From Amphiscolops sp. MND2022 (taxonomy: Eukaryota), in the NCBI GenBank assembly GCA_964187785.1, contig OZ076409.1, forward strand, positions 15,378,001 through 15,442,000: 64,000 bases of DNA, given 5' to 3'. The position numbers and the translations under genes are program-made. Of the stretch, positions 5,868-52,999 are shown in pieces. The first letter of the stretch is position 1. Each line of letters begins with the position of its first letter. The notes beneath the pieces are model-generated. The model was not told where the DNA came from, made no database searches, and worked only from the letters and a program-made list of their open reading frames with translations.

Positions 5868-6026
5868 TTAAATAAATATATAAATCAAAATCAATTTACA
5901 CTACAGCTACAAAAATTTAGCATTGTTACAAAATATTCATGGCTGACTTTTCAAAGATAATAGAAACACAGATGAAAAGAATAAAAGAATAGCATCATGA
6001 ATTTGTGTGAAGTTATCGGTCGAGAT

Positions 6027-9000: not shown

Positions 9001-9274
9001 AGTGTTCAGGAAATATTGTCATGAGACCACCTGAGTTCATTATTGCTGGTACAGTTTCATACTTCAATTTGTTAAGTTTTAAAATTTTTTCATGTTCTTT
9101 GCGTAATTTCCAAAGTTTAGTTTCTTGTATTAAAATGCAGAACGTTTTCGTCTTCCGATTTTTCTCAATTTTTTCTAAAAGCTGAATTAACTTAGTTGAA
9201 TTAGCTAGACCGCGGACGTTCACACAAAAAATTTCAATCAAATCAGCCATCAGTTTGTAAAGAGGTAGTTCCAT
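6027..9274 (-). pseudogene. ORF2: APE endonuclease + reverse transcriptase + C-terminal Cys/His motif, broken by at least 3 frameshifts
   Basis: APE motifs NVRGL, IQET, GDFN, SRIDY, SDH; RT motifs PGPDG, RPLSL, DFSKAFD, GVRQGCPLS, YADD; C-terminal ESWQHLFFDC. Confidence 0.93.
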
Positions 9275-10510: not shown

Positions 10511-10814
10511 TTTTCGTAACAATTGGTAATCGATTCAAAGTAACTGAGGTAAAAAGGAAAATAGGGAGGATTGAAGTAACTTTCGCTAGTTTCAAGAGCC
10601 TCAGAAGGGGAGAAAAAGTAAGACGAGTCTAGGGGGAAACGAACGTTCCAAGGCTTTCCACGGCCGAGGAAACGACGTTAAGACTGGTAGCGTTTTGAGG
10701 ACTGCTAACAGCCACCCGCCAAGGAAGCTTCAACTTGGTCCTCAGGCCTTTGGTCCCCATTTTGACCCCTTTTGCAAAACTGTCACCGAAGTTGAACCAC
10801 ATTTCTGACAAAAA

Positions 10815-14084: not shown

Positions 14085-14155
14085 ACCCCAGAGAGATTCG
14101 AACCTGCAGCCTCCCGATTGCGCGGCATAAGTGTTAACCACTGTGCCATAAGGAC
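14085..14155 (-). other. tRNA-like / SINE-head segment (left arm)
   Basis: GTCCTTATGGCACAGTGG (box A) ... GGTTCGAATC (box B); degenerate stems. Confidence 0.6.
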
Positions 14156-29155: not shown

Positions 29156-29448
29156 TTTTTTCATGAACACTGGAAGCAATTACTATAGTTATCCTTGTTC
29201 GATAAGTCTGTTTCCATTTCATAAACAACTGCATAAACATGACTTACATAATATTCATGGTCGAAGACAAGCTTTTCAGGGTTATAGAGTTTCAACAAAT
29301 TTACCTTCTTTGCTCAGTATGTATATGTACACAGAGGCGAAGCGGTGCTTCGCAACACATGACGAAGACAACGATTATTTTAATATGCGTATATATATTA
29401 TTTTAATAGCATGCGTATATATTCAACAGTTCAACTTCATTCAATAAC

Positions 29449-29519
29449 GTCCTTATGGCACAGTGGTTAACACTTATGCCGCCCAATCGGGAGGCTGCAG
29501 GTTCGAATCTCTCTGGGGT
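29449..29519 (+). other. tRNA-like / SINE-head segment (right arm)
   Basis: Mirror of 14085-14155. Confidence 0.6.
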
Positions 29520-30847: not shown

Positions 30848-30982
30848 AAGTTAGTGCAGACTAGCTTGTTCCTTGTTCAAAAATTGGGCAGCAGACCACT
30901 TTCGCAGTCTGCTTTCAAATAAAACTTATCAATAGGGTTGGAATACTTACCTATTTAATAAGTTTATCACAACAATTAGGCT
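30848..30982 (-). ncRNA. SL RNA gene, uninterrupted
   Basis: Same architecture as other copies. Confidence 0.85.
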
Positions 30983-31540: not shown

Positions 31541-31659
31541 AGGCTACAACACCTGGTGTTCCCAAGCGGTCTCCCATCCAAGTACTAACCAGGCCCTATG
31601 TTGTTTAACTTCGGTGATCGGACGAGAACCGGTGCATTCAACATGGTATGGTCGTAGCC
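31541..31659 (-). rRNA. 5S rRNA
   Basis: Consensus copy. Confidence 0.97.
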
Positions 31660-31751: not shown

Positions 31752-31886
31752 AAGTTAGTGCAGACTAGCTTGTTCCTTGTTCAAAAATTGGGCAGCAGAC
31801 CACTTTCGCAGTCTGCTTTCAAATAAAACTTATCAATAGGGTTGTAATACTTACCTATTTAATAAGTTTATCACAACAATTAGGCT
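31752..31886 (-). ncRNA. SL RNA coding sequence, complete but separated from its upstream region by element A1
   Basis: Exon regenerated by the TSD 31869-31886. Confidence 0.8.
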
Positions 31887-33867
31887 TTTAAAGAATTTAT
31901 TGAAAACTGAGAATTAACAAGTAAAAAGTAATGAAGTCTAAGGTATATGTATAAAATGAGTATATGAGTAACTGAAGTGTTGAAAAAGCTGAAGTATGTA
32001 GATGAAGATGCTTGGTTATGGCATTTTTGAGAAAGCGCCAAAATGGGAATGTTTTTTTTTGGTATGAAGTTAGTATAATGTAGTTTGGAGAATGTATGAA
32101 AAAAAGATGTTTGCTCCTGGAAGGAGTTTGTTCTCAAAACCCGTTTTTTGCATACAGGTTGCCAACAACTAGTGCTCGAAAAGAATTGGGAATTGGGTTG
32201 ATTGATGATGGTATTGTAGAGATTTAGAACTTTAAAATTCCAGTCAAAAAGGTCCGAAATTTTTCAGTTTAGTTTTTGTTTTCATTGTATAAGTTTTCAA
32301 CTGCAGTGAAAACTTGTACAATTTTATTCTCCAGATTAATAGTGTAAATTTGGTGGTTTGTAGCATCATAGAATGGATCAAACTTCCGGATCAATGAGTA
32401 AAATTCAAAATGAGAAGTTAAAATAGTGTTAGAGTCAGAATGTTTCCAGTTTGATTCAGATAAAAGATCTTTGAGTTTTTCTTTCTTCAGTGGTTGTACG
32501 AGTGAAAAGGTCCTTTGAATTTTCTTTTCCTTGTCTAGTGTATTGATGTAGCCAGAAGTTTGTTGGGTTTTGATCACATGTTCTTTTATAGGAGGTATTT
32601 CGTTGAAAATAGTTTCGGGTGCCAGTATTTTGTTTTGTTTCTTTTCCAAAAAGAATGGGTATTCATGATATCCATGCTTTGCCGTTGACTGTTGGTCATC
32701 TGCTTGATTTCGGGCAAGGTCTGTTGAGGATTCCCATTCAGTTGAGCGATGCATTAGTTTAGGTTTTTGCATAGGAATGGTATCTTTCTTTGAGTTGTTA
32801 ATGCATGGTTGTTCAGTTTCTGCCACGTTGTTATTGCATTCGGTTTCAGTACCATCATCGGTCTGCTTTGGCGCCTTTGAGATTGGTTCAGCATCATCTG
32901 AATCTGACAGTTCAGGTTCATTAGACATTGGCTCTGTTTCTGCAGTTTCCATAACGTAGTCAGTTGTTAACTTCTGGTTCTGAGATTCACTGTTTTTCTG
33001 TATTTGCTGTTCGTCTGATAGTTGTTTTGGGCATCTTGATTGTTGATGAGCACTGGGAAGGTTCTCATTGACGCATAAAGAGCATTCGAGGAGTGGGATA
33101 CAGCAACATTTGAAAAAAATGCCACTGGAACTAAACATTTTGTCATATGCATTATTGGCCCAGTTTTGTAGTAAACTTTCCTCATTCTCATTGTCAATTA
33201 AAACTGTAATTCTTGCCTCTCCTGTATAAAAAAGGCTGCTATCAGGAAGTCGTCGTTGTTGATGAAAAATTTTGCTACTAAATTTGAAGTTTTGAAGACC
33301 ACAGCTACTCAAAATATCCTCATCCGTCAGAAAGTGTGGTAGGTTTCGGAAAGATATTGGTAATCTTTTTGGATAGACATTGTTGTTCGGGTTGGAATAA
33401 TTGACAGAATAAGGCCGTATTTTCCGATTGCGAAGAGTAATGCCATCGTGAATAAGAGAGGAAGCTGCATTTTCAAGTTTGTAAGGAATGATCACAGTAA
33501 TACACTTCAAATTGCCTTTGTTGCGTAAAATTGTAGTTTTGAAGATGGTAATTTCATTGGAGTTAAGTCGGTTTTTGACGGCCATAACAGCTTCCACAAA
33601 CATTGAATCCAGTAATTTGCTGTTTTTGAACATTTCAGATGTCAGTGGTAAGGCAAAGTTGATAATAATTGGTAATTTGTCCATATTTGAGTTCGATTTC
33701 GACAAGGAAATAACTGCATTTTTGTAACAATTTTGCTCAACATTTTCATTATGATGTTGATCAAGCTCACTCGTGTTCAAATTAGTCATTACTTTTGCAA
33801 CTTTTGCTGCAAAATTTGCAAGATGGCGCTGTGCAAACAAAGTTTGCAGGCTGACAGAGTAACGCCG
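31887..33867 (-). mobile_element. ORF1-only non-LTR element A, copy 1
   Basis: 18-bp TSD TATCACAACAATTAGGCT at 31869-31886 and 33868-33885; 3' end AATAAATTCTTTAAA; single ORF. Confidence 0.9.
32269..33789 (-). CDS. ORF1-like protein A1 (506 aa from first ATG): RRM-like/zinc knuckle, acidic linker, unassigned C-terminal domain
   Basis: ISFRNLPHFL, FYTGEARI, IPLLECSLC..H....C align by eye with the L1/Tx1 ORF1 at 9243-10292. Confidence 0.85.
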   Translation of the reverse strand: MTNLNTSELDQHHNENVEQNCYKNAVISLSKSNSNMDKLPIIINFALPLTSEMFKNSKLLDSMFVEAVMAVKNRLNSNEITIFKTTILRNKGNLKCITVIIPYKLENAASSLIHDGITLRNRKIRPYSVNYSNPNNNVYPKRLPISFRNLPHFLTDEDILSSCGLQNFKFSSKIFHQQRRLPDSSLFYTGEARITVLIDNENEESLLQNWANNAYDKMFSSSGIFFKCCCIPLLECSLCVNENLPSAHQQSRCPKQLSDEQQIQKNSESQNQKLTTDYVMETAETEPMSNEPELSDSDDAEPISKAPKQTDDGTETECNNNVAETEQPCINNSKKDTIPMQKPKLMHRSTEWESSTDLARNQADDQQSTAKHGYHEYPFFLEKKQNKILAPETIFNEIPPIKEHVIKTQQTSGYINTLDKEKKIQRTFSLVQPLKKEKLKDLLSESNWKHSDSNTILTSHFEFYSLIRKFDPFYDATNHQIYTINLENKIVQVFTAVENLYNENKN

Positions 33868-34442
33868 TATCACAACAATTAGGCTAAAAGCAAAGAGTCA
33901 ATTTTTGGAGCGCGAGACTCCTATCTGCGGTACGGACTTGCCATTACCAGCCAACAACTTGTTTTGAGGAGAAATTCTCTTGAAAAGACGACGTTTCAAG
34001 TTATTGACATCTGATGAAACAAAAATATTCCAGAAAAATTGTGAGAAAGCAAAATTTTGACTCTATTACGAAAATGTCTGCTGAAAAGCATAAATTAGTA
34101 AGCTTAAAAATGAAATTCCATGTATTATCAAAAGTCGACTCAGGAGTGTGAAAACACGTTTTAGGGGTAAGTTTGGGCCCTCTTTCCAATGCCGTTGTCC
34201 GTTTTTTGCTATCTGTTCATTTTGACCCCTTTTGCAAAACTGTCACCGAAGTTAAACCACATTTTGTGAAAATAGTAAAAATGACATAACTCAATGAAAA
34301 TTCAAGTGATGGCGGCGAAAATTTCAGCATGGGGGTTTTTTTGGACGCTCTTTCCAATGCCGTTGTCCGTTTTTTGCTATCTGTTCATTTTGACCCCTTT
34401 TGCGAAACTGTCACCGAAGTTAAACCACATTTCTGACAAAAA

Positions 34443-34788: not shown

Positions 34789-36769
34789 TTTAAAGAATTT
34801 ATTGAAAACTGAGAATTTACAAGTAAAAAGTAATGAAGTCTAAGGTATAGGTATAAAAAGAGTATATGAGTAACTGAAGTGTTGAAAAAGCTGAAGTATG
34901 TAGATGAAGATGCTTGGTTATGGCATTTTTGAGAAAGCGCCAAAATGGGAATGTTTTTTTTAGGTATGAAGTTAGTATAATGTAGTTTGGAGAATGTATG
35001 AAAAAAAGATGTTTGCTCCTGGAAGGAGTTTGTTTTCAAAACCCGTTTTTTGCATACAGGTTGCGAACAACTAGTGCTCGAAAAGAATTGGGAATTGGGT
35101 TGATTGATGATGGTATTGTACAGATTTAGAACTTTAAAGTTCCAGTCAAAAAGGTCCGAAATTTTTCAGTTTAGTTTTTGTTTTCATTGTATAAGTTTTC
35201 AACTGCAGTGGAAACTTGTACAATTTTATTCTCCAGATTAATAGTGTAAATTTGGTGGTTTGTAGCATCATAGAATGGATCAAACTTCCGGATCAATGAG
35301 TAAAATTCAAAATGAGAAGTTAAAATAGTGTTAGAGTCAGAATGATTCCAGTTTGATTCAGATAAAAGATCTTCGAGTTTTTCTTTCTTCAGTGGTTGTA
35401 CGAGTGAAAAGGTCCTTTGAATTTTCTTTTCCTTGTCTAGTGTATTGATGTAGCCAGAAGTTTGTTGGGTTTTGATCACATGTTCTTTTATAGGAGGTAT
35501 TTCGTTGAAAATAGTTTCGGGTGCCAGTATTTTGTTTTGTTTCTTTTCCAAAAAGAATGGGTATTCATGATATCCATGCTTTGCCGTTGACTGTTGGTCA
35601 TCTGCTTGATTTCGGGCAAGGTCTGTTGAGGATTTCCATTCAGTTGAGCGATGCATTATATTAGGTTTTTGCATAGGAATGGTATCTTTCTTTGAGTTGT
35701 TAATGCATGGTTGTTCAGTTTCTGCCACGTTGTTATTGCATTCGGTTTCAGTACCATCATCGGTCTGCTTTGGCGCCTTTGAGATTGGTTCAGCATCATC
35801 TGAATCTGACAGTTCAGGTTCATTAGACATTGGCTCTGTTTCTGCAGTTTCCATAACGTAGTCAGTTGTTAACTTCTGGTTCTGAGATTCACTGTTTTTC
35901 TGTATTTGCTGTTCGTCTGATAGTTGTTTTGGGCATCTTGATTGTTGATGAGCACTGGGAAGGTTCTCAATGACGCATAAAGAGCATTCGAGGAGTGGGA
36001 TACAGCAACATTTGAAAAAAATGCCACTGGAACTAAACATTTTGTCATATGCATTATTGGCCCAGTTTTGTAGTAAACTTTCCTCATTCTCATTGTCAAT
36101 TAAAACTGTAATTCTTGCCTCTCCTGTATAAAAAAGGCTGCTATCAGGAAGTCGTCGTTGTTGATGAAAAATTTTGCTACTAAATTTGAAGTTTTGAAGA
36201 CCACAGCTACTCAAAATATCCTCATCCGTCAGAAAGTGTGGTAGGTTTCGGAAAGATATTGGTAATCTTTTTGGATAGACATTGTTGTTCGGGTTGGAAT
36301 AATTGACAGAATAAGGCCGTATTTTCCGATTGCGAAGAGTAATGCCCTCGTGAATAAGAGAGGAAGCTGCATTTTCAAGTTTGTAAGGAATGATCACAGT
36401 AATACACTTCAAATTGCCTTTGTTGCGTAAAATTGTAGTTTTGAAGATGGTAATTTCATTGGAGTTAAGTCGGTTTTTGACGGCCATAACAGCTTCCACA
36501 AACATTGAATCCAGTAATTTGCTGTTGTTGAACATTTCAGATGTCAGTGGTAAGGCAAAGTTGATAATAATTGGTAATTTGTCCATATTTGAGTTCGATT
36601 TCGACAAGGAAATAACTGCATTTTTGTAACAATTTTGCTCAACATTTTCATTATGATGTTGATCAAGCTCACTCGTGTTCAAATTAGTCATTACTTTTGC
36701 AACTTTTGCTGCAAAATTTGCAAGATGGCGCTGTGCAAACAAAGTTTGCAGGCTGACAGAGTAACGCCG
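34789..36769 (-). mobile_element. Element A, copy 2
   Basis: Same termini and TSD. Confidence 0.9.
35171..36691 (-). CDS. ORF1-like protein A2
   Basis: Intact; few aa differences from A1. Confidence 0.85.
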   Translation of the reverse strand: MTNLNTSELDQHHNENVEQNCYKNAVISLSKSNSNMDKLPIIINFALPLTSEMFNNSKLLDSMFVEAVMAVKNRLNSNEITIFKTTILRNKGNLKCITVIIPYKLENAASSLIHEGITLRNRKIRPYSVNYSNPNNNVYPKRLPISFRNLPHFLTDEDILSSCGLQNFKFSSKIFHQQRRLPDSSLFYTGEARITVLIDNENEESLLQNWANNAYDKMFSSSGIFFKCCCIPLLECSLCVIENLPSAHQQSRCPKQLSDEQQIQKNSESQNQKLTTDYVMETAETEPMSNEPELSDSDDAEPISKAPKQTDDGTETECNNNVAETEQPCINNSKKDTIPMQKPNIMHRSTEWKSSTDLARNQADDQQSTAKHGYHEYPFFLEKKQNKILAPETIFNEIPPIKEHVIKTQQTSGYINTLDKEKKIQRTFSLVQPLKKEKLEDLLSESNWNHSDSNTILTSHFEFYSLIRKFDPFYDATNHQIYTINLENKIVQVSTAVENLYNENKN

Positions 36770-37345
36770 TATCACAACAATTAGGCTAAAAGCAAAGAGT
36801 CAATTTTTGGAGCGCGAGACTCCTATCTGCGGTACGGACTTACCATTACCAGCCAACAACTTGTTTTGAGGAGAAATTCTCATGAAAAGACGACGTGTCA
36901 AGTTATTGACATCTGATGAAACAAAAATATTCCAGAAAAATTGTGAGAAAGCAAAATTTTGACTCTATTACGAAAATGTATGCTGAAAAGCATAAATTAG
37001 TAAGCTTAAAAATGAAATTCCATGTATTATCAAAAGTCGACTCAGGAGTGTGAAAAACACGTTTTAGGGGTAATTTTGGGCCCTCTTTCCAATGCCGTTG
37101 TCCGTTTTTTGCTATCTGTTCATTTTGACCTCTTTTGCAAAACTGTCACCGAAGTTAAACCACTTTTTGTGAAAATAGTAAAAATGACATAACTCAATGA
37201 AAATTCAAGTGATGGCGGCGAAAATTTCAGCATGGGGGTTTTTTTGGACGCTCTTTCCAATGCCGTTGTCCGTTTTTTGCTATCTGTTCATTTTGACCCC
37301 TTTTGCGAAACTGTCACCGAAGTTAAACCACATTTCTGACAAAAA

Positions 37346-37464
37346 AGGCTACAACACCTGGTGTTCCCAAGCGGTCTCCCATCCAAGTACTAACCAGGCC
37401 CTATGTTGTTTAACTTCGGTGATCGGACGAGAACCGGTGCATTCAACATGGTATGGTCGTAGCC
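37346..37464 (-). rRNA. 5S rRNA
   Basis: Consensus copy. Confidence 0.97.
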
Positions 37465-37556
37465 GATCATTGTAAAATCAATAGCTTTATATGCTTAACA
37501 ACAAAATTACGTACAATGATACGAAAATTTTCTCGGTCAAAATACGCGTAACTTTT

Positions 37557-37691
37557 AAGTTAGTGCAGACTAGCTTGTTCCTTGTTCAAAAATTGGGCAG
37601 CAGACCACTTTCGCAGTCTGCTTTCAAATAAAACTTATCAATAGGGTTGGAATACTTACCTATTTAATAAGTTTATCACAACAATTAGGCT
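37557..37691 (-). ncRNA. SL RNA coding sequence downstream of A3
   Basis: Same architecture. Confidence 0.8.
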
Positions 37692-39672
37692 TTTAAAGAA
37701 TTTATTGAAAACTGAGAATTTACAAGTAAAAAGTAATGAAGTCTAAGGTATATGTATAAAATGAGTATATGAGTAACTGAAGTGTTGAAAAAGCTGAAGT
37801 ATGTAGATGAAGATGCTTGGTTATGGCATTTTTGAGAAAGCGCCAAAATGGGAATGTTTTTTTTTGGTATGAAGTTAGTATAATGAAGTTTGGAGAATGT
37901 ATGAAAAAAAGAAGTTTGCTCCTGGAAGGAGTTTGTTCTCAAAACCCGTTTTTTGCATACCGGTTACGAACAACTAGTGCTCGAAAAGAATTGGGAATTG
38001 GGTTGATTGATGATGGTATTGTAGAGATTTAGAACTTTAAAGTTCCAGTCAAAAAGGTCCGAAATTTTTCAGTTTAGTTTTTGTTTTCATTGTATAGGTT
38101 TTCAACTGCAGTGAAAACTTGTACAATTTTATTCTCCAGATTAATAGTGTAAATTTGGTGGTTTGTAGCATCATAGAATGGATCAAACTTCCGGATCAAT
38201 GAGTAAAATTCAAAATGAGAAGTTAAAATAGTGTTAGAGTCAGAATGTTTCCAGTTTGATTCAGATAAAAGATCTTCGAGTTTTTCTTTCTTCAGTGGTT
38301 GTACGAGTGAAAAGGTCCTTTCAATTTTCTTTTCCTTGTCTAGTGTATTGATGTAGCCAGAAGTTTGTTGGGTTTTGATCACATGTTCTTTTATAGGAGG
38401 TATTTCGTTGAAAATAGTTTCGGGTGCCAGTATTTTGTTTTGTTTCTTTTCCAAAAAGAATGGGTATTCATGATATCCATGCTTTGCCGTTGACTGTTGG
38501 TCATCTGCTTGATTTCGGGCAAGGTCTGTTGAGGATTTCCATTCAGTTGAGCGATGCATTATATTAGGTTTTTGCATAGGAATGGTATCTTTCTTTGAGT
38601 TGTTAATGCATGGTTGTTCAGTTTCTGCCACGTTGTTATTGCATTCGGTTTCAGTACCATCATCGGTCTGCTTTGGCGCCTTTGAGATTGGTTCAGCATC
38701 ATCTGAATCTGACAGTTCAGGTTCATTAGACATTGGCTCTGTTTCTGCAGTTTCCATAACGTAGTCAGTTGTTAACTTCTGGTTCTGAGATTCACTGTTT
38801 TTCTGTATTTGCTGTTCGTCTGATAGTTGTTTTGGGCATCTTGATTGTTGATGAGCACTGGGAAGGTTCTCAATGACGCATAAAGAGCATTCGAGGAGTG
38901 GGATACAGCAACATTTGAAAAAAATGCCACTGGAACTAAACATTTTGTCATATGCATTATTGGCCCAGTTTTGTAGTAAACTTTCCTCATTCTCATTGTC
39001 AATTAAAACTGTAATTCTTGCCTCTCCTGTATAAAAAAGGCTGCTATCAGGAAGTCGTCGTTGTTGATGAAAAATTTTGCTACTAAATTTGAAGTTTTGA
39101 AGACCACAGCTACTCAAAATATCCTCATCCGTCAGAAAGTGTGGTAGGTTTCGGAAAGATATTGGTAATCTTTTTGGATAGACATTGTTGTTCGGGTTGG
39201 AATAATTGACAGAATAAGGCCGTATTTTCCGATTGCGAAGAGTAATGCCCTCGTGAATAAGAGAGGAAGCTGCATTTTCAAGTTTGTAAGGAATGATCAC
39301 AGTAATACACTTCAAATTGCCTTTGTTGCGTAAAATTGTAGTTTTGAAGATGGTAATTTCATTGGAGTTAAGTCGGTTTTTGACGGCCATAACAGCTTCC
39401 ACAAACAATGAATCCAGTAATTTGCTGTTGTTGAACATTTCAGATGTCAGTGGTAAGGCAAAGTTGATAATAATTGGTAATTTGTCCATATTTGAGTTCG
39501 ATTTCGACAAGGAAATAACTGCATTTTTGTAACAATTTTGCTCAACATTTTCATTATGATGTTGATCAAGCTCACTCGTGTTCAAATTAGTCATTACTTT
39601 TGCAACTTTTGCTGCAAAATTTGCAAGATGGCGCTGTGCAAACAAAGTTTGCAGGCTGACAGAGTAACGCCG
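37692..39672 (-). mobile_element. Element A, copy 3
   Basis: Same termini and TSD. Confidence 0.9.
38074..39594 (-). CDS. ORF1-like protein A3
   Basis: Intact ORF. Confidence 0.85.
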   Translation of the reverse strand: MTNLNTSELDQHHNENVEQNCYKNAVISLSKSNSNMDKLPIIINFALPLTSEMFNNSKLLDSLFVEAVMAVKNRLNSNEITIFKTTILRNKGNLKCITVIIPYKLENAASSLIHEGITLRNRKIRPYSVNYSNPNNNVYPKRLPISFRNLPHFLTDEDILSSCGLQNFKFSSKIFHQQRRLPDSSLFYTGEARITVLIDNENEESLLQNWANNAYDKMFSSSGIFFKCCCIPLLECSLCVIENLPSAHQQSRCPKQLSDEQQIQKNSESQNQKLTTDYVMETAETEPMSNEPELSDSDDAEPISKAPKQTDDGTETECNNNVAETEQPCINNSKKDTIPMQKPNIMHRSTEWKSSTDLARNQADDQQSTAKHGYHEYPFFLEKKQNKILAPETIFNEIPPIKEHVIKTQQTSGYINTLDKEKKIERTFSLVQPLKKEKLEDLLSESNWKHSDSNTILTSHFEFYSLIRKFDPFYDATNHQIYTINLENKIVQVFTAVENLYNENKN

Positions 39673-40248
39673 TATCACAACAATTAGGCTAAAAGCAAAG
39701 AGTCAATTTTTGGAGCGCGAGACTCCTATCTGCGGTACGGACTTACCATTACCAGCCAACAACTTGTTTTGAGGAGAAATTCTCATGAAAAGACGACGTG
39801 TCAAGTTATTGACATCTGATGAAACAAAAATATTCCAGAAAAATTGTGAGAAAGCAAAATTTTGACTCTATTACGAAAATGTATGCTGAAAAGCATAAAT
39901 TAGTAAGCTTAAAAATGAAATTCCATGTATTATCAAAAGTCGACTCAGGAGTGTGAAAAACACGTTTTAGGGGTAATTTTGGGCCCTCTTTCCAATGCCG
40001 TTGTCCGTTTTTTGCTATCTGTTCATTTTGACCTCTTTTGCAAAACTGTCACCGAAGTTAAACCACTTTTTGAGAAAATAGTAAAAATGACATAACTCAA
40101 TGAAAATTCAAGTGATGGCGGCGAAAATTTCAGCATGGGGGTTTTTTTGGACGCTCTTTCCAATGCCGTTGTCCGTTTTTTGCTATCTGTTCATTTTGAC
40201 CCCTTTTGCGAAACTGTCACCGAAGTTAAACCACATTTCTGACAAAAA

Positions 40249-40367
40249 AGGCTACAACACCTGGTGTTCCCAAGCGGTCTCCCATCCAAGTACTAACCAG
40301 GCCCTATGTTGTTTAACTTCGGTGATCGGACGAGAACCGGTGCATTCAACATGGTATGGTCGTAGCC
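40249..40367 (-). rRNA. 5S rRNA
   Basis: Consensus copy. Confidence 0.97.
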
Positions 40368-40459
40368 GATCATTGTAAAATCAATAGCTTTATATGCTTA
40401 ACAACAAAATTACGTACAATGATACGAAAATTTTCTCGGTCAAAATACGCGTAACTTTT

Positions 40460-40594
40460 AAGTTAGTGCAGACTAGCTTGTTCCTTGTTCAAAAATTGGG
40501 CAGCAGACCACTTTCGCAGTCTGCTTTCAAATAAAACTTATCAATAGGGTTGGAATACTTACCTATTTAATAAGTTTATCACAACAATTAGGCT
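40460..40594 (-). ncRNA. SL RNA coding sequence downstream of A4
   Basis: Same architecture. Confidence 0.8.
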
Positions 40595-42575
40595 TTTAAA
40601 GAATTTATTGAAAACTGAGAATTTACAAGTAAAAAGTAATGAAGTCTAAGGTATATGTATAAAATGAGTATATGAGTAACTGAAGTGTTGAAAAAGCTGA
40701 AGTATGTAGATGAAGATGCTTGGTTATGGCATTTTTGAGAAAGCGCCAAAATGGGAATGTTTTTTTTTGGTATGAAGTTAGTATAATGAAGTTTGGAGAA
40801 TGTATGAAAAAAAGAAGTTTGCTCCTGGAAGGAGTTTGTTCTCAAAACCCGTTTTTTGCATACCGGTTACGAACAACTAGTGCTCGAAAAGAATTGGGAA
40901 TTGGGTTGATTGATGATGGTATTGTAGAGATTTAGAACTTTAAAGTTCCAGTCAAAAAGGTCCGAAATTTTTCAGTTTAGTTTTTGTTTTCATTGTATAG
41001 GTTTTCAACTGCAGTGAAAACTTGTACAATTTTATTCTCCAGATTAATAGTGTAAATTTGGTGGTTTGTAGCATCATAGAATGGATCAAACTTCCGGATC
41101 AATGAGTAAAATTCAAAATGAGAAGTTAAAATAGTGTTAGAGTCAGAATGTTTCCAGTTTGATTCAGATAAAAGATCTTCGAGTTTTTCTTTCTTCAGTG
41201 GTTGTACGAGTGAAAAGGTCCTTTCAATTTTCTTTTCCTTGTCTAGTGTATTGATGTAGCCAGAAGTTTGTTGGGTTTTGATCACATGTTCTTTTATAGG
41301 AGGTATTTCGTTGAAAATAGTTTCGGGTGCCAGTATTTTGTTTTGTTTCTTTTCCAAAAAGAATGGGTATTCATGATATCCATGCTTTGCCGTTGACTGT
41401 TGGTCATCTGCTTGATTTCGGGCAAGGTCTGTTGAGGATTCCCATTCAGTTGAGCGATGTATTAGTTTAGGTTTTTGCATAGGAATGGTATCTTTCTTTG
41501 AGTTGTTAATGCATGGTTGTTCAGTTTCTGCCACGTTGTTATTGCATTCGGTTTCAGTACCATCATCGGTCTGCTTTGGCGCCTTTGAGATTGGTTCAGC
41601 ATCATCTGAATCTGACAGTTCAGGTTCATTAGACATTGGCTCTGTTTCTGCAGTTTCCATAACGTAGTCAGTTGTTAACTTCTGGTTCTGAGATTCACTG
41701 TTTTTCTGTATTTGCTGTTCGTCTGATAGTTGTTTTGGGCATCTTGATTGTTGATAAGCACTGGGAAGGTTCTCATTGACGCATAAAGAGCATTCGAGAA
41801 GTGGGATACAGCAACATTTGAAAAAAATGCCACTGGAACTAAACATTTTGTCATATGCATTATTGGCCCAGTTTTGTAGTAAGCTTTTCTCATTCTCATT
41901 GTCAATTAAAACTATAATTTTTGCCTCTCCTGTATAAAAAAGGCTGCTATCAGGAAGTCGTCGTTGTTGATGAAAAATTTTGCTACTAAATTTGAAGTTT
42001 TGAAGACCACAGCTACTCAAAATATCCTCATCCGTCAGAAAGTGTGGTAGGTTTCGGAAAGATATTGGTAATCTTTTTGGATAGACATTGTTGTTCGGGT
42101 TGGAATAATTGACAGAATAAGGCCGTATTTTCCGATTGCGAAGAGTAATGCCCTCGTGAATAAGAGAGGAAGCTGCATTTTCAAGTTTGTAAGGAATGAT
42201 CACAGTAATACACTTCAAATTGCCTTTGTTGCGTAAAATTGTAGTTTTGAAGATGGTAATTTCATTGGAGATAAGTCGGTTTTTGACGGCCATAACAGCT
42301 TCCACAAACATTGAATCCAGTAATTTGCTGTTTTTGAACATTTCAGATGTCAGTGGTAAGGCAAAGTTGATAATAATTGGTAATTTGTCCATATTTGAGT
42401 TCGATTTCGACAAGGAAATAACTGCATTTTTGTAACAATTTTGCTCAACATTTTCATTATGATGTTGATCAAGCTCACTCGTGTTCAAATTAGTCATTAC
42501 TTTTGCAACTTTTGCTGCAAAATTTGCAAGATGGCGCTGTGCAAACAAAGTTTGCAGGCTGACAGAGTAACGCCG
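40595..42575 (-). mobile_element. Element A, copy 4
   Basis: Same termini and TSD. Confidence 0.9.
40977..42497 (-). CDS. ORF1-like protein A4 (zinc-knuckle His changed to Tyr)
   Basis: Intact ORF; PSAYQQSRC. Confidence 0.85.
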   Translation of the reverse strand: MTNLNTSELDQHHNENVEQNCYKNAVISLSKSNSNMDKLPIIINFALPLTSEMFKNSKLLDSMFVEAVMAVKNRLISNEITIFKTTILRNKGNLKCITVIIPYKLENAASSLIHEGITLRNRKIRPYSVNYSNPNNNVYPKRLPISFRNLPHFLTDEDILSSCGLQNFKFSSKIFHQQRRLPDSSLFYTGEAKIIVLIDNENEKSLLQNWANNAYDKMFSSSGIFFKCCCIPLLECSLCVNENLPSAYQQSRCPKQLSDEQQIQKNSESQNQKLTTDYVMETAETEPMSNEPELSDSDDAEPISKAPKQTDDGTETECNNNVAETEQPCINNSKKDTIPMQKPKLIHRSTEWESSTDLARNQADDQQSTAKHGYHEYPFFLEKKQNKILAPETIFNEIPPIKEHVIKTQQTSGYINTLDKEKKIERTFSLVQPLKKEKLEDLLSESNWKHSDSNTILTSHFEFYSLIRKFDPFYDATNHQIYTINLENKIVQVFTAVENLYNENKN

Positions 42576-43497: not shown

Positions 43498-45479
43498 TTT
43501 AAAGAATTTATTGAAAACTGAGAATTTACAAGTAAAAAGTAATGAAGTCTAAGGTATATGTATAAAATGAGTATATGAGTAACTGAAGTGTTGAAAGAGC
43601 TGAAGTATGTAGATGAAGATGCTTGGTTATGGCATTTTTGAGAAAGCGCCAAAATGGGAATTGTTTTTTTTTGGTATGAAGTTAGTATAATGTAGTTTGG
43701 AGAATGTATGAAAAAAAGATGTTTGCTCCTGGAAGGAGTTTGTTCTCAAAACCCGTTTTTTGCATACAGGTTGCGAACAACTAGTGCTCGAAAAGAATTG
43801 GGAATTGGGTTGATTGATGGTGGTATTGTAGAGATTTAGAACTTTAAAGTTCCAGTCAAAAAGGTCCGAAGTTTTTCAGTTTAGTTTTTGTTTTCATTGT
43901 ATAAGTTTTCAACTGCAGTGAAAACTTGTACAATTTTATTCTCCAGATTAATAGTGTAAATTTGGTGGTTTGTAGCATCATAGAATGGATCAAACTTCCG
44001 GATCAATGAGTAAAATTCAAAATGAGAAGTTAAAATAGTGTTAGAGTCAGAATGTTTCCAGTTTGATTCAGATAAAAGATCTTCGAGTTTTTCTTTCTTC
44101 AGTGGTTGTACGAGTGAAAAGGTTCTTTGAATTCTCTTTTCCTTGTCTAGTGTATTGATGTAGCCAGAAGTTTGTTGGGTTTTGATCACATGTTCTTTTA
44201 TAGGAGGTATTTCGTTGAAAATAGTTTCGGGTGCCAGTATTTTGTTTTGTTTCTTTTCCAAAAAGAATGGGTATTCATGATATCCATGCTTTGCCGTTGA
44301 CTGTTGGTCATCTGCTTGGTTTCGGGCAAGGTCTGTTGAGGATTCCCATTCAGTTGAGCGATGCATTAGTTTAGGTTTTTGCATAGGAATGGTATCTTTC
44401 TTTGAGTTGTTAATGCATGGTTGTTCAGTTTCTGCCACGTTGTTATTGCATTCGGTTTCAGTACCATCATCGGTCTGCTTTGGCGCCTTTGAGATTGGTT
44501 CAGCATCATCTGAATCTGACAGTTCAGGTTCATTAGACATTGGCTCTGTTTCTGCAGTTTCCATAACGTAGTCAGTTGTTAACTTCTGGTTCTGAGATTC
44601 ACTGTTTTTCTGTATTTGCTGTTCGTCTGATAGTTGTTTTGGGCATCTTGATTGTTGATGAGCACTGGGAAGGTTCTCATTGACGCATAAAGAGCATTCG
44701 AGGAGTGGGATACAGCAACATTTGAAAAAAATGCCACTGGAACTAAACATTTTGTCATATGCATTATTGGCCCAGTTTTGTAGTAAACTTTCCTCATTCT
44801 CATTGTCAATTAAAACTGTAATTCTTGCCTCTCCTGTATAAAAAAGGCTGCTATCAGGAAGTCGTCGTTGTTGATGAAAAATTTTGCTACTAAATTTGAA
44901 GTTTTGAAGACCACAGCTACTCAAAATATCCTCATCCGTCAGAATGTGTGGTAGGTTTCGGAAAGATATTGGTAATCTTTTTGGATAGACATTGTTGTTC
45001 GGGTTGGAATAATTGACAGAATAAGGCCGTATTTTCCGATTGCGAAGAGTAATGCCCTCGTGAATAAGAGAGGAAGCTGCATTTTCAAGTTTGTAAGGAA
45101 TGATCACAGTAATACACTTCAAATTGCCTTTGTTGCGTAAAATTGTAGTTTTGAAGATGGTAATTTCATTGGAGTTAAGTCGGTTTTTGACGGCCATAAC
45201 AGCTTCCACAAACATTGAATCCAGTAATTTGCTGTTGTTGAACATTTCAGATGTCAGTGGTAAGGCAAAGTTGATAATAATTGGTAATTTGTCCATATTT
45301 GAGTTCGATTTCGACAAGGAAATAACTGCATTTTTGTAACAATTTTGCTCAACATTTTCATTATGATGTTGATCAAGCTCACTCGTGTTCAAATTAGTCA
45401 TTACTTTTGCAACTTTTGCTGCAAATTTTGCAAGATGGCGCTGTGCAAACAAAGTTTGCAGGCTGACAGAGTAACGCCG
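43498..45479 (-). mobile_element. Element A, copy 5 (tandem trimer)
   Basis: Separated from A6 only by the 18-bp TSD 45480-45497. Confidence 0.9.
43881..45401 (-). CDS. ORF1-like protein A5
   Basis: Intact ORF. Confidence 0.85.
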   Translation of the reverse strand: MTNLNTSELDQHHNENVEQNCYKNAVISLSKSNSNMDKLPIIINFALPLTSEMFNNSKLLDSMFVEAVMAVKNRLNSNEITIFKTTILRNKGNLKCITVIIPYKLENAASSLIHEGITLRNRKIRPYSVNYSNPNNNVYPKRLPISFRNLPHILTDEDILSSCGLQNFKFSSKIFHQQRRLPDSSLFYTGEARITVLIDNENEESLLQNWANNAYDKMFSSSGIFFKCCCIPLLECSLCVNENLPSAHQQSRCPKQLSDEQQIQKNSESQNQKLTTDYVMETAETEPMSNEPELSDSDDAEPISKAPKQTDDGTETECNNNVAETEQPCINNSKKDTIPMQKPKLMHRSTEWESSTDLARNQADDQQSTAKHGYHEYPFFLEKKQNKILAPETIFNEIPPIKEHVIKTQQTSGYINTLDKEKRIQRTFSLVQPLKKEKLEDLLSESNWKHSDSNTILTSHFEFYSLIRKFDPFYDATNHQIYTINLENKIVQVFTAVENLYNENKN

Positions 45480-45497
45480 TATCACAACAATTAGGCT

Positions 45498-47477
45498 TTT
45501 AAAGAATTTATTGAAAACTGAGAATTTACAAGTAAAAAGTAATGAAGTCTAAGGTATATGTATAAAATGAGTATATGAGTAACTGAAGTGTTGAAAAAGC
45601 TGAAGTATGTAGATGAAGATGCTTGGTTATGGCATTTTTGAGAAAGCGCCAAAATGGGAATGTTTTTTTTGGTATGAAGTTAGTATAATGTAGTTTGGAG
45701 AATGTATGAAAAAAAGAAGTTTGCTCCTGGAAGGAGTTTGTTCTCAAAACCCGTTTTTTGCATACCGGTTACGAACAACTAGTGCTCGAAAAGAATTGGG
45801 AATTGGGTTGATTGATGATGGTATTGTAGAGATTTAGAACTTTAAAGTTCCAGTCAAAAAGGTCCGAAATTTTTCAGTTTAGTTTTTGTTTTCATTGTAT
45901 AAGTTTTCAACTGCAGTGAAAACTTGTACAATTTTATTCTCCAGATTAATAGTGTAAATTTGGTGGTTTGTAGCATCATAGAATGGATCAAACTTCCGGA
46001 TCAATGAGTAAAATTCAAAATGAGAAGTTAAAATAGTGTTAGAGTCAGAATGTTTCCAGTTTGATTCAGATAAAAGATCTTCGAGTTTTTCTTTCTTCAG
46101 TGGTTGTACGAGTGAAAAGGTCCTTTGAATTTTCTTTTCCTTGTCTAGTGTATTGATGTAGCCAGAAGTTTGTTGGGTTTTGATCACATGTTCTTTTATA
46201 GGAGGTATTTCGTTGAAAATAGTTTCGGGTGCCAGTATTTTGTTTTGTTTCTTTTCCAAAAAGAATGGGTATTCATGATATCCATGCTTTGCCGTTGACT
46301 GTTGGTCATCTGCTTGATTTCGGGCAAGGTCTGTTGAGGATTTCCATTCAGTTGAGCGATGCATTAGTTTAGGTTTTTGCATAGGAATGGTATCTTTCTT
46401 TGAGTTGTTAATGCATGGTTGTTCAGTTTCTGCCACGTTGTTATTGCATTCGGTTTCAGTACCATCATCGGTCTGCTTTGGCGCCTTTGAGATTGGTTCA
46501 GCATCATCTGAATCTGACAGTTCAGGTTCATTAGACATTGGCTCTGTTTCTGCAGTTTCCATAACGTAGTCAGTTGTTAACTTCTGGTTCTGAGATTCAC
46601 TGTTTTTCTGTATTTGCTGTTCGTCTGATAGTTGTTTTGGGCATCTTGATTGTTGATGAGCACTGGGAAGGTTCTCATTGACGCATAAAGAGCATTCGAG
46701 GAGTGGGATACAGCAACATTTGAAAAAAATGCCACTGGAACTAAACATTTTGTCATATGCATTATTGGCCCAGTTTTGTAGTAAACTTTCCTCATTCTCA
46801 TTGTCAATTAAAACTGTAATTCTTGCCTCTCCTGTATGAAAAAGGCTGCTATCAGGAAGTCGTCGTTGTTGATGAAAAATTTTGCTACTAAATTTGAAGT
46901 TTTGAAGACCACAGCTACTCAAAATATCCTCATCCGTCAGAAAGTGTGGTAGGTTTCGGAAAGATATTGGTAATCTTTTTGGATAGACATTGTTGTTCGG
47001 GTTGGAATAATTGACAGAATAAGGCCGTATTTTCCGATTGCGAAGAGTAATGCCCTCGTGAATAAGAGAGGAAGCTGCATTTTCAAGTTTGTAAGGAATG
47101 ATCACAGTAATACACTTCAAATTGCCTTTGTTGCGTAAAATTGTAGTTTTGAAGATGGTAATTTCATTGGAGTTAAGTCGGTTTTTGACGGCCATAACAG
47201 CTTCCACAAACATTGAATCCAGTAATTTGCTGTTGTTGAACATTTCAGATGTCAGTGGTAAGGCAAAGTTGATAATAATTGGTAATTTGTCCATATTTGA
47301 GTTCGATTTCGACAAGGAAATAACTGCATTTTTGTAACAATTTTGCTCAACATTTTCATTATGATGTTGATCAAGCTCACTCGTGTTCAAATTAGTCATT
47401 ACTTTTGCAACTTTTGCTGCAAATTTTGCAAGATGGCGCTGTGCAAACAAAGTTTGCAGGCTGACAGAGTAACGCCG
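45498..47477 (-). mobile_element. Element A, copy 6 (tandem trimer)
   Basis: TSDs 45480-45497 and 47478-47495. Confidence 0.9.
45879..47399 (-). CDS. ORF1-like protein A6
   Basis: Intact ORF. Confidence 0.85.
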   Translation of the reverse strand: MTNLNTSELDQHHNENVEQNCYKNAVISLSKSNSNMDKLPIIINFALPLTSEMFNNSKLLDSMFVEAVMAVKNRLNSNEITIFKTTILRNKGNLKCITVIIPYKLENAASSLIHEGITLRNRKIRPYSVNYSNPNNNVYPKRLPISFRNLPHFLTDEDILSSCGLQNFKFSSKIFHQQRRLPDSSLFHTGEARITVLIDNENEESLLQNWANNAYDKMFSSSGIFFKCCCIPLLECSLCVNENLPSAHQQSRCPKQLSDEQQIQKNSESQNQKLTTDYVMETAETEPMSNEPELSDSDDAEPISKAPKQTDDGTETECNNNVAETEQPCINNSKKDTIPMQKPKLMHRSTEWKSSTDLARNQADDQQSTAKHGYHEYPFFLEKKQNKILAPETIFNEIPPIKEHVIKTQQTSGYINTLDKEKKIQRTFSLVQPLKKEKLEDLLSESNWKHSDSNTILTSHFEFYSLIRKFDPFYDATNHQIYTINLENKIVQVFTAVENLYNENKN

Positions 47478-47495
47478 TATCACAACAATTAGGCT

Positions 47496-49475
47496 TTTAA
47501 AGAATTTATTGAAAACTGAGAATTTACAAGTAAAAAGTAATGAAGTCTAAGGTATATGTATAAAATGAGTATATGAGTAACTGAAGTGTTGAAAAAGCTG
47601 AAGTATGTAGATGAAGATGCTTGGTTATGGCATTTTTGAGAAAGCGCCAAAATGGGAATGTTTTTTTTGGTATGAAGTTAGTATAATGTAGTTTGGAGAA
47701 TGTATGAAAAAAAGAAGTTTGCTCCTGGAAGGAGTTTGTTCTCAAAACCCGTTTTTTGCATACCGGTTACGAACAACTAGTGCTCGAAAAGAATTGGGAA
47801 TTGGGTTGATTGATGATGGTATTGTAGAGATTTAGAACTTTAAAGTTCCAGTCAAAAAGGTCCGAAATTTTTCAGTTTAGTTTTTGTTTTCATTGTATAA
47901 GTTTTCAACTGCAGTGAAAACTTGTACAATTTTATTCTCCAGATTAATAGTGTAAATTTGGTGGTTTGTAGCATCATAGAATGGATCAAACTTCCGGATC
48001 AATGAGTAAAATTCAAAATGAGAAGTTAAAATAGTGTTAGAGTCAGAATGTTTCCAGTTTGATTCAGATAAAAGATCTTCGAGTTTTTCTTTCTTCAGTG
48101 GTTGTACGAGTGAAAAGGTCCTTTGAATTTTCTTTTCCTTGTCTAGTGTATTGATGTAGCCAGAAGTTTGTTGGGTTTTGATCACATGTTCTTTTATAGG
48201 AGGTATTTCGTTGAAAATAGTTTCGGGTGCCAGTATTTTGTTTTGTTTCTTTTCCAAAAAGAATGGGTATTCATGATATCCATGCTTTGCCGTTGACTGT
48301 TGGTCATCTGCTTGATTTCGGGCAAGGTCTGTTGAGGATTTCCATTCAGTTGAGCGATGCATTAGTTTAGGTTTTTGCATAGGAATGGTATCTTTCTTTG
48401 AGTTGTTAATGCATGGTTGTTCAGTTTCTGCCACGTTGTTATTGCATTCGGTTTCAGTACCATCATCGGTCTGCTTTGGCGCCTTTGAGATTGGTTCAGC
48501 ATCATCTGAATCTGACAGTTCAGGTTCATTAGACATTGGCTCTGTTTCTGCAGTTTCCATAACGTAGTCAGTTGTTAACTTCTGGTTCTGAGATTCACTG
48601 TTTTTCTGTATTTGCTGTTCGTCTGATAGTTGTTTTGGGCATCTTGATTGTTGATGAGCACTGGGAAGGTTCTCATTGACGCATAAAGAGCATTCGAGGA
48701 GTGGGATACAGCAACATTTGAAAAAAATGCCACTGGAACTAAACATTTTGTCATATGCATTATTGGCCCAGTTTTGTAGTAAACTTTCCTCATTCTCATT
48801 GTCAATTAAAACTGTAATTCTTGCCTCTCCTGTATGAAAAAGGCTGCTATCAGGAAGTCGTCGTTGTTGATGAAAAATTTTGCTACTAAATTTGAAGTTT
48901 TGAAGACCACAGCTACTCAAAATATCCTCATCCGTCAGAAAGTGTGGTAGGTTTCGGAAAGATATTGGTAATCTTTTTGGATAGACATTGTTGTTCGGGT
49001 TGGAATAATTGACAGAATAAGGCCGTATTTTCCGATTGCGAAGAGTAATGCCCTCGTGAATAAGAGAGGAAGCTGCATTTTCAAGTTTGTAAGGAATGAT
49101 CACAGTAATACACTTCAAATTGCCTTTGTTGCGTAAAATTGTAGTTTTGAAGATGGTAATTTCATTGGAGTTAAGTCGGTTTTTGACGGCCATAACAGCT
49201 TCCACAAACATTGAATCCAGTAATTTGCTGTTTTTGAACATTTCAGATGTCAGTGGTAAGGCAAAGTTGATAATAATTGGTAATTTGTCCATATTTGAGT
49301 TCGATTTCGACAAGGAAATAACTGCATTTTTGTAACAATTTTGCTCAACATTTTCATTATGATGTTGATCAAGCTCACTCGTGTTCAAATTAGTCATTAC
49401 TTTTGCAACTTTTGCTGCAAAATTTGCAAGATGGAGCTGTGCAAACAAAGTTTGCAGGCTGACAGAGTAACGCCG
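47496..49475 (-). mobile_element. Element A, copy 7 (tandem trimer)
   Basis: TSDs 47478-47495 and 49476-49493. Confidence 0.9.
47877..49397 (-). CDS. ORF1-like protein A7
   Basis: Intact ORF. Confidence 0.85.
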   Translation of the reverse strand: MTNLNTSELDQHHNENVEQNCYKNAVISLSKSNSNMDKLPIIINFALPLTSEMFKNSKLLDSMFVEAVMAVKNRLNSNEITIFKTTILRNKGNLKCITVIIPYKLENAASSLIHEGITLRNRKIRPYSVNYSNPNNNVYPKRLPISFRNLPHFLTDEDILSSCGLQNFKFSSKIFHQQRRLPDSSLFHTGEARITVLIDNENEESLLQNWANNAYDKMFSSSGIFFKCCCIPLLECSLCVNENLPSAHQQSRCPKQLSDEQQIQKNSESQNQKLTTDYVMETAETEPMSNEPELSDSDDAEPISKAPKQTDDGTETECNNNVAETEQPCINNSKKDTIPMQKPKLMHRSTEWKSSTDLARNQADDQQSTAKHGYHEYPFFLEKKQNKILAPETIFNEIPPIKEHVIKTQQTSGYINTLDKEKKIQRTFSLVQPLKKEKLEDLLSESNWKHSDSNTILTSHFEFYSLIRKFDPFYDATNHQIYTINLENKIVQVFTAVENLYNENKN

Positions 49476-50398: not shown

Positions 50399-51351
50399 TT
50401 TAAAGATTGTATTGGACCTTTTAATGTATAAATCAAATAGTCTTTATAGTAAGTCTAAGTATAAATTGTATAAAAGATATAAACGGTATAAAAGGTGTAC
50501 AGAGTACTGTATAAGAGTATGAAAAAGTACTGAGTGAAAAATGGAAGCTTGTTTGAAAGTTCAGGCAAAAAAGAACGTTGTTTTTTTGAAGAAATTAGTA
50601 TAATGTAGTCTTGAGTATGTGGGGTAAAAGTGATGTTTGCTCCTGGATGGAGTTATTGGATCAAACTGTTTTTTGGCTTTTTTAATAGCATGGTATTGAA
50701 CTTTACAAGACTTGGGATTTGAGGGTGTAGCATATCAAGGAGTGGGTTTTGAGTTATTTGTGTTGTTACAAAAAATAGCATCAATCTTGTTTTTCAAATG
50801 GGATAAAGTCATATCTAACTTTTCCTTGGAGATTTACTAAATAAATGATGTTCTCGGGTTTGTAAAAGAAGGCATCCAGTCTTCCTTTGATGTATTTGAA
50901 GGCATCGTAGTTGGCGATCTTTGAAGAGGAGGTTCGGCTTCTCCACTCTTTGTCTTCAAACATCTCTTGTTGTGCTGATTCCGATAGTTTTTGGACATAT
51001 CTTAGTTGGTTAACAACAACTTTTTTATCGTTAATGATGTTGATATCACCTCCTTTGTGATCACATTCTGCTAGTTTAGGATATTTTGATTCCATTCTGT
51101 TGACAGTTTGAATAATTTCGTTGTCCACATCGAGGTAAAACGGTAAAAAAGCAAAATCGGGATCCACTTTCGTGGCTTTGTTTTCAGGTTCATCAGCTGA
51201 CTCCTCCTCCTCCTCAGAAGGTATTGGCTCAGTATCTTCATTGCTAAGATTGTTTTTTTGTGTAGAGTGATGTTTGCATTGCTTCTTATGATGGCCCATA
51301 AATTGGCGTTTTCCTTCGTTACAATTCTCACATTTTACAATGTGTTATTGT
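50399..51351 (-). mobile_element. ORF1-only element B, 5'-truncated copy
   Basis: TSD 50381-50398 and 51352-51369; matches the 3' ~935 bp of B2; ORF remnant 50781-51334. Confidence 0.9.
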
Positions 51352-51369
51352 TATCACAACAATTAGGCT

Positions 51370-52988
51370 TTTAAAGATTGTATTGGACCTTTTATTGTAT
51401 AAATCAAATAGTCTTTATAGTAAGTCTAAGTATAAATTGTATAAAAGATATAAACGGTATAAAAGGTGTACAGAGTACTGTATAAGAGTATGAAAAAGTA
51501 CTGAGTGAAAAATGGAAGCTTGTTTGAAAGTTCAAGCAAAAAAGAACGTTGTTTTTTTTGAAGAAATTAGTATAATGTAGTCTTGAGTATGTGGGGTAAA
51601 AATGATGTTTGCTCCTGGATGGAGTTATTGGATCAAACTGTTTTTTGGCTATTTTAATAGCATGGTATTGAACTTTAAAAGACTTGGGATTTGAGGGTGT
51701 AGCATATCAAGGAGTGGGTTTTGAGTTATTTGTGTTTGTTACAAAAAATAGCATCAATCTTGTTTTTCAAATGGGATAAAGTCATATCTAACTTTTCCTT
51801 GGAGATTTACTAAATAAATGATGTTCTCGGGTTTGTAAAAGAAGGCATCCAGTCTTCCTTTGATGTATTTGAAGGCATCGTAGTTGGCGATCTTTGAAGA
51901 GGAGGTTCGGCTTCTCCACTCTTTGTCTTCAAACATCTCTTGTTGTGCTGATTCCGATAGTTTTTGGACATATCTTAGTTGGTTAACAACAACTTTTTTT
52001 ATCGTTAATGATGTTGATATCACCTCCTTTGTGATCACATTCTGCTAGTTTAGGATATTTTGATTCCATTCTGTTGACAGTGTGAATAATCTCGTTGTCC
52101 ACATCGAGGTAAAACGGTAAAAAAGCAAAATCGGGATCCACTTTCGTGGCTTTGTTTTCAGGTTCATCAGCTGACTCCTCCTCCTCAGAAGGTATTGGCT
52201 CAGCATCTTCATTGCTAAGATTGTTTTTTTGTGTAGAGTGATGTTTGCATTGCTTCTTATGATGGCCCATAAATTGGCGTTTTCCTTCGTTACAATTCTC
52301 ACATTGTAACAAGGTTTGAATGTAACATTTGAAGGGAATTTCATTAGTAACAAACTGGTTCAAAAAGGCTTGTTGGTTCCATGATTTGATGTTTTCTAAT
52401 TGGCATTGATTGGCAATCTCTATTTCAGCATAACAGATTCCAGTAAAGGCTTCGATGTCGTCAGAAATTCTTACTCTTTGGTGGCGTAATTTGGAAATTT
52501 TGTACTCTTGCAGATTACAAGCCTCCACAATCTCTCCATCTTCTAAAAAGTGTGGTAAATTGCGGAATTTCAAAGTGAATTGCTTTGGGTAGGAGTTAGA
52601 ACAAACATCACTGTTTTGGAATGCATAAATTATCCGGTTTTTGTAAGGAATTCCTTTAAGAAGTAGGTTTTTGAAGTCGTTTTCTATCGAGTTTGGAGCA
52701 ATAATTTTGATGCATTCAAGCTTCTTTTCATGCTCATGCGCTGGCGCATGTTTGGACACGTACGATTTAATGCATGTCACGCTGTCAATATGAGTAGGCG
52801 ATAAAGCATGTAAAAGCTTGCAAAGGAATTCTTTGTAAACAGCTTGCTTTATGTTTGGGCTGGTAATTTCTTCTTTTGTGTAAGGAATGATGAATTCTGC
52901 TGTCAATAAAGGCATTGTTCAGGTAATTTTCGTCTTCTCTGCCGCAGCAGTGAGAGTAGAGTTAGCAAATAATCGCTGACACACGCAG
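51370..52988 (-). mobile_element. ORF1-only element B, full-length copy (~1.6 kb)
   Basis: Left TSD complete; right TSD (52989-52999) cut by the Helitron-type 5' end. Confidence 0.88.
51754..52915 (-). pseudogene. ORF1-like protein B (~386 aa), one +1 frameshift in a T-run near 51995
   Basis: LKFRNLPHFL, FTG, LLQCENC..GHHKKQC. The truncated copy B1 has 6 T and reads through where B2 has 7 T. Confidence 0.82.
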
Positions 52989-52999
52989 TATCACAACAA

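Follow-up and report, generated by a model that had tools for sequence, protein, structure and literature searches.

Within the window, by which we mean the whole 64,000-nt stretch of DNA analysed, lies a tandem array whose 904-bp unit consists of a 5S rRNA gene and an SL RNA gene, with the SL on the minus strand (Table 1). Rfam matches 12 5S rRNA genes in the window and returns no SL family match there. The SL gene is recognised by its exon, which matches the leader known from acoel mRNAs; nt 2-32 are identical to the first 31 nt of the Symsagittifera roscoffensis leader (PMC9911081), and the window is thus probably acoel DNA. Because that leader begins at nt 2 of the numbering used in the first-pass annotation and kept here, the true SL +1 is uncertain by one base. 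The gene also has a GU donor within a stem-loop and an Sm-type site downstream (fold z of -2.7 and -3.4).

Table 1. Positions of the genes, elements and motifs discussed in the text.
Feature	Position	Strand	Basis or remark
APE-RT LINE, L1/Tx1 group, frameshifted here	5868..10757	-	domain search, junction comparison
Empty, uninterrupted SL gene (reference target)	30866..30982	-	sequence comparison
5S rRNA gene of the 904-bp SL+5S unit	31541..31659	-	Rfam, 117.5 bits
Sequence-complete promoterless SL gene	31770..31886	-	exon 31886-31855, GU donor from 31854, Sm-type site 31789-31781; RNA 3' end predicted
Element A, copy A1 (1981 nt), ORF1-only non-autonomous retroelement	31887..33867	-	copy comparison
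AATAAA, 9 nt ahead of the 3' junction	31896..31901	-	motif search
506-aa ORF: two RRMs, CCHC knuckle, disordered linker, C-terminal domain	32269..33789	-	no RT or endonuclease
C-terminal domain, ~125 aa	32272..32670	-	alignment; common to ORF1-only families, absent from LINE ORF1
78-nt 5' UTR without ATG	33790..33867	-	sequence reading
Candidate trans-splice acceptors: two YAG sites, 73% pyrimidine upstream	G at 33851, 33829	-	5' UTR of A1
SL exon nt 1-18, 5' copy, no donor	33868..33885	-	sequence comparison
5S-to-SL spacer with presumed external SL promoter	33886..34442	-	promoter role presumed
Element A, copies A2 (36769-34789), A3 (39672-37692), A4 (42575-40595), one per unit	34789..42575	-	copy comparison
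A5-A7, three head-to-tail A copies with single 18-mers between	43498..49475	-	copy comparison
Element B, same SL site: full copy 52988-51370 (frameshifted ORF), 18-mer, 5'-truncated copy 51351-50399	50399..52988	-	sequence comparison

The window holds 12 SL gene bodies. Five are intact, and the other seven carry an insert that ends at the boundary between nt 18 and nt 19 (nt 18/19). Element A occupies five of these seven (seven copies, three of them head-to-tail), whereas element B and a LINE occupy one each. The 3' side of each of the three kinds of insert adjoins SL nt 18/19. Such a frequency of interruption is relevant to SL availability in a group of animals for which trans-splicing of about 30% of genes is reported (PMC9911081). 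This boundary falls at the base of the donor hairpin (SL nt 19-60, e.g. 30964-30923), an inverted repeat that could form in DNA too.

The first-pass annotation described SL upstream DNA and SL nt 1-18, then an element, then a sequence-complete SL gene with donor and Sm site, and this geometry is confirmed on the minus strand. The upstream spacer (34442-33886) leads into SL nt 1-18 (33885-33868) and the element (33867-31887), after which the SL begins anew with nt 1 at 31886. At the empty site at 30982 the same upstream DNA runs straight into an unbroken SL. The spacer is 98.6% identical to that of the empty unit, with few variants in its proximal 190 nt, and the upstream DNA of element-bearing units in general is that of empty units save for scattered SNPs. 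The SL copy behind A1 is sequence complete, with the donor hairpin and a second hairpin (nt 70-93). It has one loop change (C42A) and has lost the upstream promoter DNA.

It is clear that this geometry is not due to chance, since the start and end bases are identical in all seven A copies of the window. The 18-mer is exact at six of the seven A 3' junctions and has one substitution in the remaining one. The three A residues that precede it are invariant in seven A and two B copies, unlike variable poly(A) tails. However, copy number overstates the number of insertion events. The A copies differ by 3-26 nt in mosaic patterns, and array recombination must therefore have made some of them.

The protein of element A and its relatives

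The single ORF of element A is intact in all seven copies. It has no match in Pfam, but BLASTP relates it to ORF1 of the LINE (E 5e-17), and it also matches the element B protein (E 6e-27). An AF2 model built on a five-row alignment predicts two confident regions, the N-terminal one being identified as tandem RRMs by Foldseek; a CCHC pattern after the RRMs was read from the protein sequence. The C-terminal domain was modelled from four sequences (pLDDT 80, pTM 0.74). Foldseek finds no match for it in PDB or BFVD at E<=0.001, and the best VIA Z is 4.0 with weak Atlas hits only, although an absent match does not demonstrate a new fold.

Element A is thus HAL1-like, with one ORF homologous to LINE ORF1 and no ORF2. 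Like HAL1 (half-L1), it is non-autonomous and encodes only ORF1p (PMC5753468). In contrast to HAL1, it is non-mammalian and site-specific, has an extra folded C-terminal domain, ends in three invariant A residues with no poly(A) tail and has no partner-derived 3' end in common with the local LINE, the window LINE being the one compared.

A profile search returned 103 relatives of the A protein. Seven families contain both parts of it (A, B/P0180, P0181, P0182, P0183, P0003 and P0004) and align over their full length at 21-45% identity. The number is a lower bound, so that at least seven ORF1-only families of RT-less, protein-coding companions have kept one ORF. DNA flanks are known for A and B; that the other five families also target the SL is something we infer from contig co-location. 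Several intact ORF1-only relatives (clusters P0180, P0181 and P0182) lie on 1.4-1.7-kb contigs from several public sources, each about one element long. No flanking DNA of related elements was found in metagenome contigs, prokaryote genomes or viral contigs; ten viral matches to the SL 17-mer were dismissed as chance, since none continues as SL.

The A cluster has 77 members. Among the 15 listed, nine have their start within the SL 18-mer and continue in frame into the element, across at least seven contigs, and two read through SL upstream sequence. These junctions come from gene calls, which reveal in-frame junctions alone, and five of the 15 are uninformative. A further listed member, P0011, judged from its protein, passes directly from SL nt 13-18 to element nt 37 and would thus be a copy at this site that lacks the first 36 nt of the element. 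None of the fetched proteins has the N-terminus expected of a trans-spliced template, and the template therefore looks like a primary transcript.

Element B has a 3' UTR homologous to that of A (0 of 1000 shuffles reach the score), whereas the two 5' UTRs have no significant likeness (456 of 1000). A 7-nt motif near the starts is common to both elements. The new 5' end of the truncated B copy falls on the same SL boundary, as is expected of target-primed reverse transcription.

What if a few old insertions were multiplied by unequal crossing-over alone, with the elements as silent passengers? Four consecutive units of 2903 bp, the mosaic variants and a pair of A copies that differ by just 3 nt would fit this scenario, as would the neutral pattern of ORF changes among the seven A copies (20 non-synonymous and five synonymous over 1211 and 307 sites). 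However, crossing-over does not suit truncated copies, whose 5' ends are new yet fall on the same site, or families so diverged that still have intact ORFs. Nor does it suit the B-like intact ORFs, about 80% identical, that occur on short contigs from other sources. We consider it very unlikely as the whole explanation.

The LINE as a putative partner

The LINE has ORF1 and an ORF2 with N-terminal APE and RT. The RT domain is matched by RVT_1 (E 2e-27) and the endonuclease by Exo_endo_phos at E 2-3e-5, just under curated cut-offs. Among solved structures, L1 ORF2p is a better match for the RT (E 3e-42) than R2 is (E 1e-21). A quick RT tree of 47 rows puts the LINE within a 32-row clade at 99% support, with the sole TX1-named row unplaced. 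The copy in the window is frameshifted, and P0162 is an intact 1092-aa ORF2 member of the family. Among the 15 listed of its 34 members, 11 are on contigs shared with ORF1-only families, equal size being taken as the same contig. Target specificity is seen in DNA for the one copy in the window and by contig co-location for other members.

The junctions of the LINE differ from those of A and B. At its 3' junction, 7 nt match the SL up to nt 18, compared with 18 nt for A and B. Its 5' end (10757/10758) joins the spacer 57 nt past the 5S gene, and about 510 bp are missing, among them the SL promoter together with SL nt 1-11. Neither A nor B has a 3' UTR like that of the window LINE (score reached by 774 and 68 of 1000 shuffles, respectively), and the only 3' sequence common to all three is the SL downstream of nt 11. 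The partnership is therefore putative, and the real partner may belong to a related LINE family; such families exist beside that of the window LINE. It is likely that a LINE ORF2p acts in trans on the A RNA.

Predicted start and end of the element RNA

The first-pass annotation proposed that the SL promoter drives the element. The upstream DNA is intact and the 5' UTR is short and ATG-free (78 nt in A and about 70 nt in B, compared with more than 400 nt in the LINE). Precedent comes from SLACS, for which transcription from +1 of the interrupted SL gene is reported (PMC3447711), and from NeSL-1, for which co-transcription with the SL gene is proposed (PMC7650587, citing Malik and Eickbush 2000). 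Element A is thus probably transcribed from the SL promoter of the gene that it interrupts, with the chimeric RNA itself still a prediction. Pol II would probably start at SL +1 and make an RNA composed of SL nt 1-18, 5' UTR, ORF and 3' UTR. A short internal promoter, or an SL promoter inside the exon, is a possible alternative to the external one. The SL promoter of Ascaris lies inside the exon, and a literature search on exon-internal SL promoters gave nothing relevant. Promoter capture is a known kind of idea, and the new part is likely to be the element families that use the site.

The two YAG sites in the 5' UTR are among seven of the 41 in the predicted RNA that reach their pyrimidine level. 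For translation, the RNA may be a trans-splice acceptor and not a donor. SLACS RNA is reportedly trans-spliced.

Cleavage usually occurs 10-30 nt past a poly(A) signal, and behind the AATAAA of element A this range covers SL nt 1-21, which would place the end in the downstream SL exon copy. Our tentative reading is that the RNA would run at least that far and be polyadenylated there by the element's own signal. In A and in each of the two B copies, AATAAA or ATTAAA lies no more than 30 nt from the junction. When the last 120 nt are shuffled, the signal arises by chance in 6.5% of cases for A, and the figure for B is 13%, so the signal is modestly above chance. It is unlikely that the RNA ends at the element's last base.

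The first-pass annotation went further and had a single SL-promoter RNA end at the SL 3' signal, acquire Sm proteins and a TMG cap and donate a giant leader; by our count that leader would be 2031 nt long. Some observations would suit such an RNA. A cut exactly at the base of the donor hairpin leaves the hairpin, the second stem and the Sm site whole downstream of every element, and both SL stems keep pairing in the predicted fold of the last 700 nt of the chimera. The SL downstream of nt 11 is, moreover, the 3' sequence that A, B and the LINE have in common. However, the poly(A) signals near the junction do not fit, and the Sm site is predicted to be more paired in the chimera (unpaired 0.2-0.5, compared with 0.4-0.95). 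The promoterless 3' SL copies are also no better conserved than intact ones, which argues against an RNA that ends at the SL 3' signal. They have seven changes in seven copies, compared with three in five intact copies, and one of the seven is at the last exon base, adjoining the donor (G32T, in B's 3' SL copy). In addition, Integrator is expected to cleave near the promoter and not 2 kb away. Evidence from Caenorhabditis elegans cuts both ways. SL-promoter read-through RNAs there can be long and translated upon Integrator depletion, but the assayed chimeras are described as polyadenylated (PMC6390993). On balance, an Sm particle ending at the SL 3' end, with a TMG cap, seems doubtful, the full proposal is improbable, and donation of the element as a leader exon in trans-splicing is extremely so.

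Insertion, known systems and other inserts

The geometry, the absence of RT, the homology to LINE ORF1 and the common nt 18/19 boundary are direct observations. Element A would accordingly be described, in an account that we regard as evenly poised, as an SL-promoter-driven 2-kb ORF1-only element for whose insertion into new SL genes an L1/Tx1-group LINE of the same site supplies the endonuclease and RT. The consensus cut of L1 is described as 5'-TTTT/A-3', and an L1-like TTT/A step is found on the bottom strand between SL nt 18 and 17, so that the cut is perhaps nearly blunt. The 3' 18-mer is perhaps RNA-borne and not a fresh duplication. One bottom-strand cut at nt 17/18 together with an RNA-borne SL stretch accounts for both the 18-nt match of A and B and the 7-nt match of the LINE, and we slightly favour such a stretch over classical duplication. 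SL sequence at both RNA ends would then anneal to the cut target, which would give exact junctions and regenerate the target, and a regenerated target allows tandem stacks. Target homology at both ends was also part of the first-pass annotation; it is plausible under a published R1 model (PMC2718515), with the RNA itself predicted.

Might the insertion instead be plainly R1-like, with a short internal promoter, an SL-free RNA and the 18-mer as a target-site duplication left by staggered cuts, one ahead of nt 1 and one following nt 18? The 5'-truncated copies too join after nt 18, which means that RNA homology is not required for cutting the top strand at that point, and the 7-nt motif at the starts of A and B could be an initiator. 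Ancestral R1 is described as having a fixed 14-bp duplication, tandem arrays with one duplication between copies and no upstream target in its RNA (PMC2718515), and A5-A7 and B show the same tandem pattern. However, this explanation requires different bottom-strand cuts for the LINE and for A and B, it does not fit the lack of variable poly(A) tails in the seven A and two B copies, and the 5' UTRs are very short. We therefore think it unlikely.

A more elaborate scheme goes beyond the account with an RNA-borne SL stretch. The RT-less radiation may have swapped ORF2 for the domain of unknown fold and may use the host SL RNA module as a tail. The SL promoter would start the RNA and the regenerated SL gene would end it, the LINE RT would recognise the SL stem-loops, nuclear import of the particle would depend on Sm/TMG maturation, and the role of the C-terminal domain would be to recruit ORF2p or the target. 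This scheme is a long shot.

R1 (insect 28S) and the Tx1-clade APE LINEs resemble the present system in their APE endonuclease, fixed site in a multicopy RNA gene and fixed duplication, but the target here is the SL gene. Read-through experiments are said to exist for R1Bm. Tandem R1 arrays share one duplication, and target sequence has been proposed at R1 RNA ends (PMC2718515). Like SLACS, CZAR and CRE of trypanosomatids, A inserts at a fixed site in the SL exon, theirs being between nt 11 and 12 (PMC5814959). The SL +1 start that is reported for SLACS (PMC3447711) is only predicted for A. However, those elements are autonomous and belong to the restriction-like endonuclease (RLE) clade (PMC4640811), whereas A has neither RT nor such an endonuclease and the LINE here is APE-type. 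NeSL-1 of nematodes likewise sits in SL1 genes with co-transcription proposed (PMC7650587), but it is an autonomous RLE-type element with a protease domain (PMC4640811) and a protein unrelated to that of A.

No acoel or APE-type SL-targeting element was found in the literature search, which had most subscription papers and Repbase outside its scope, and novelty is thus provisional. What looks new is an APE-type LINE that targets SL genes, together with a radiation of ORF1-only companions that share an unknown domain. Known SL-gene targeting is by RLE-type retroelements in trypanosomes and nematodes, and the present case would add a further, independent animal origin through an APE-type LINE. 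It also offers a compact test system for how a 2-kb coding RNA arises from an snRNA-type promoter, how an element that is not autonomous gains access to an RT without a common tail and what function the C-terminal domain has.

A second kind of element also strikes one fixed SL position, nt 7/8. Its ends, which we take to be Helitron-like, lie in two SL genes, at 52999/53000 and 3897/3898 (+ strand), without duplication; the details are A/TC at 53000 and a GC hairpin with CTAG/T at 3897. The insert separates element B from the SL promoter. Two readings of the 190 nt upstream of B, an SL promoter that has diverged and the 3' end of a fourth retroelement, were considered and rejected, this being the Helitron-like 5' end. 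Within it (53126-53156), a 24-nt block matches SL upstream DNA from about -119 to -96 (0 of 1000 shuffles) and may be captured or a shared promoter element. A satellite of about 450 bp (1-3550 and 53200-64000) lies inside the insert; pieces of it are 72-86% like the SL spacer, and its resemblance to tRNA is weak, at 19-24 bits with Rfam tRNA, which is below threshold, and with none found by ARAGORN. The array spacer also contains a large inverted duplication (13388-30204), with arms about 98% complementary and a 1.5-kb spacer. Four of its ORFs had no Pfam match above cut-off; by eye, its ORFs contain what are presumably PC4-like and HUH-like motifs.
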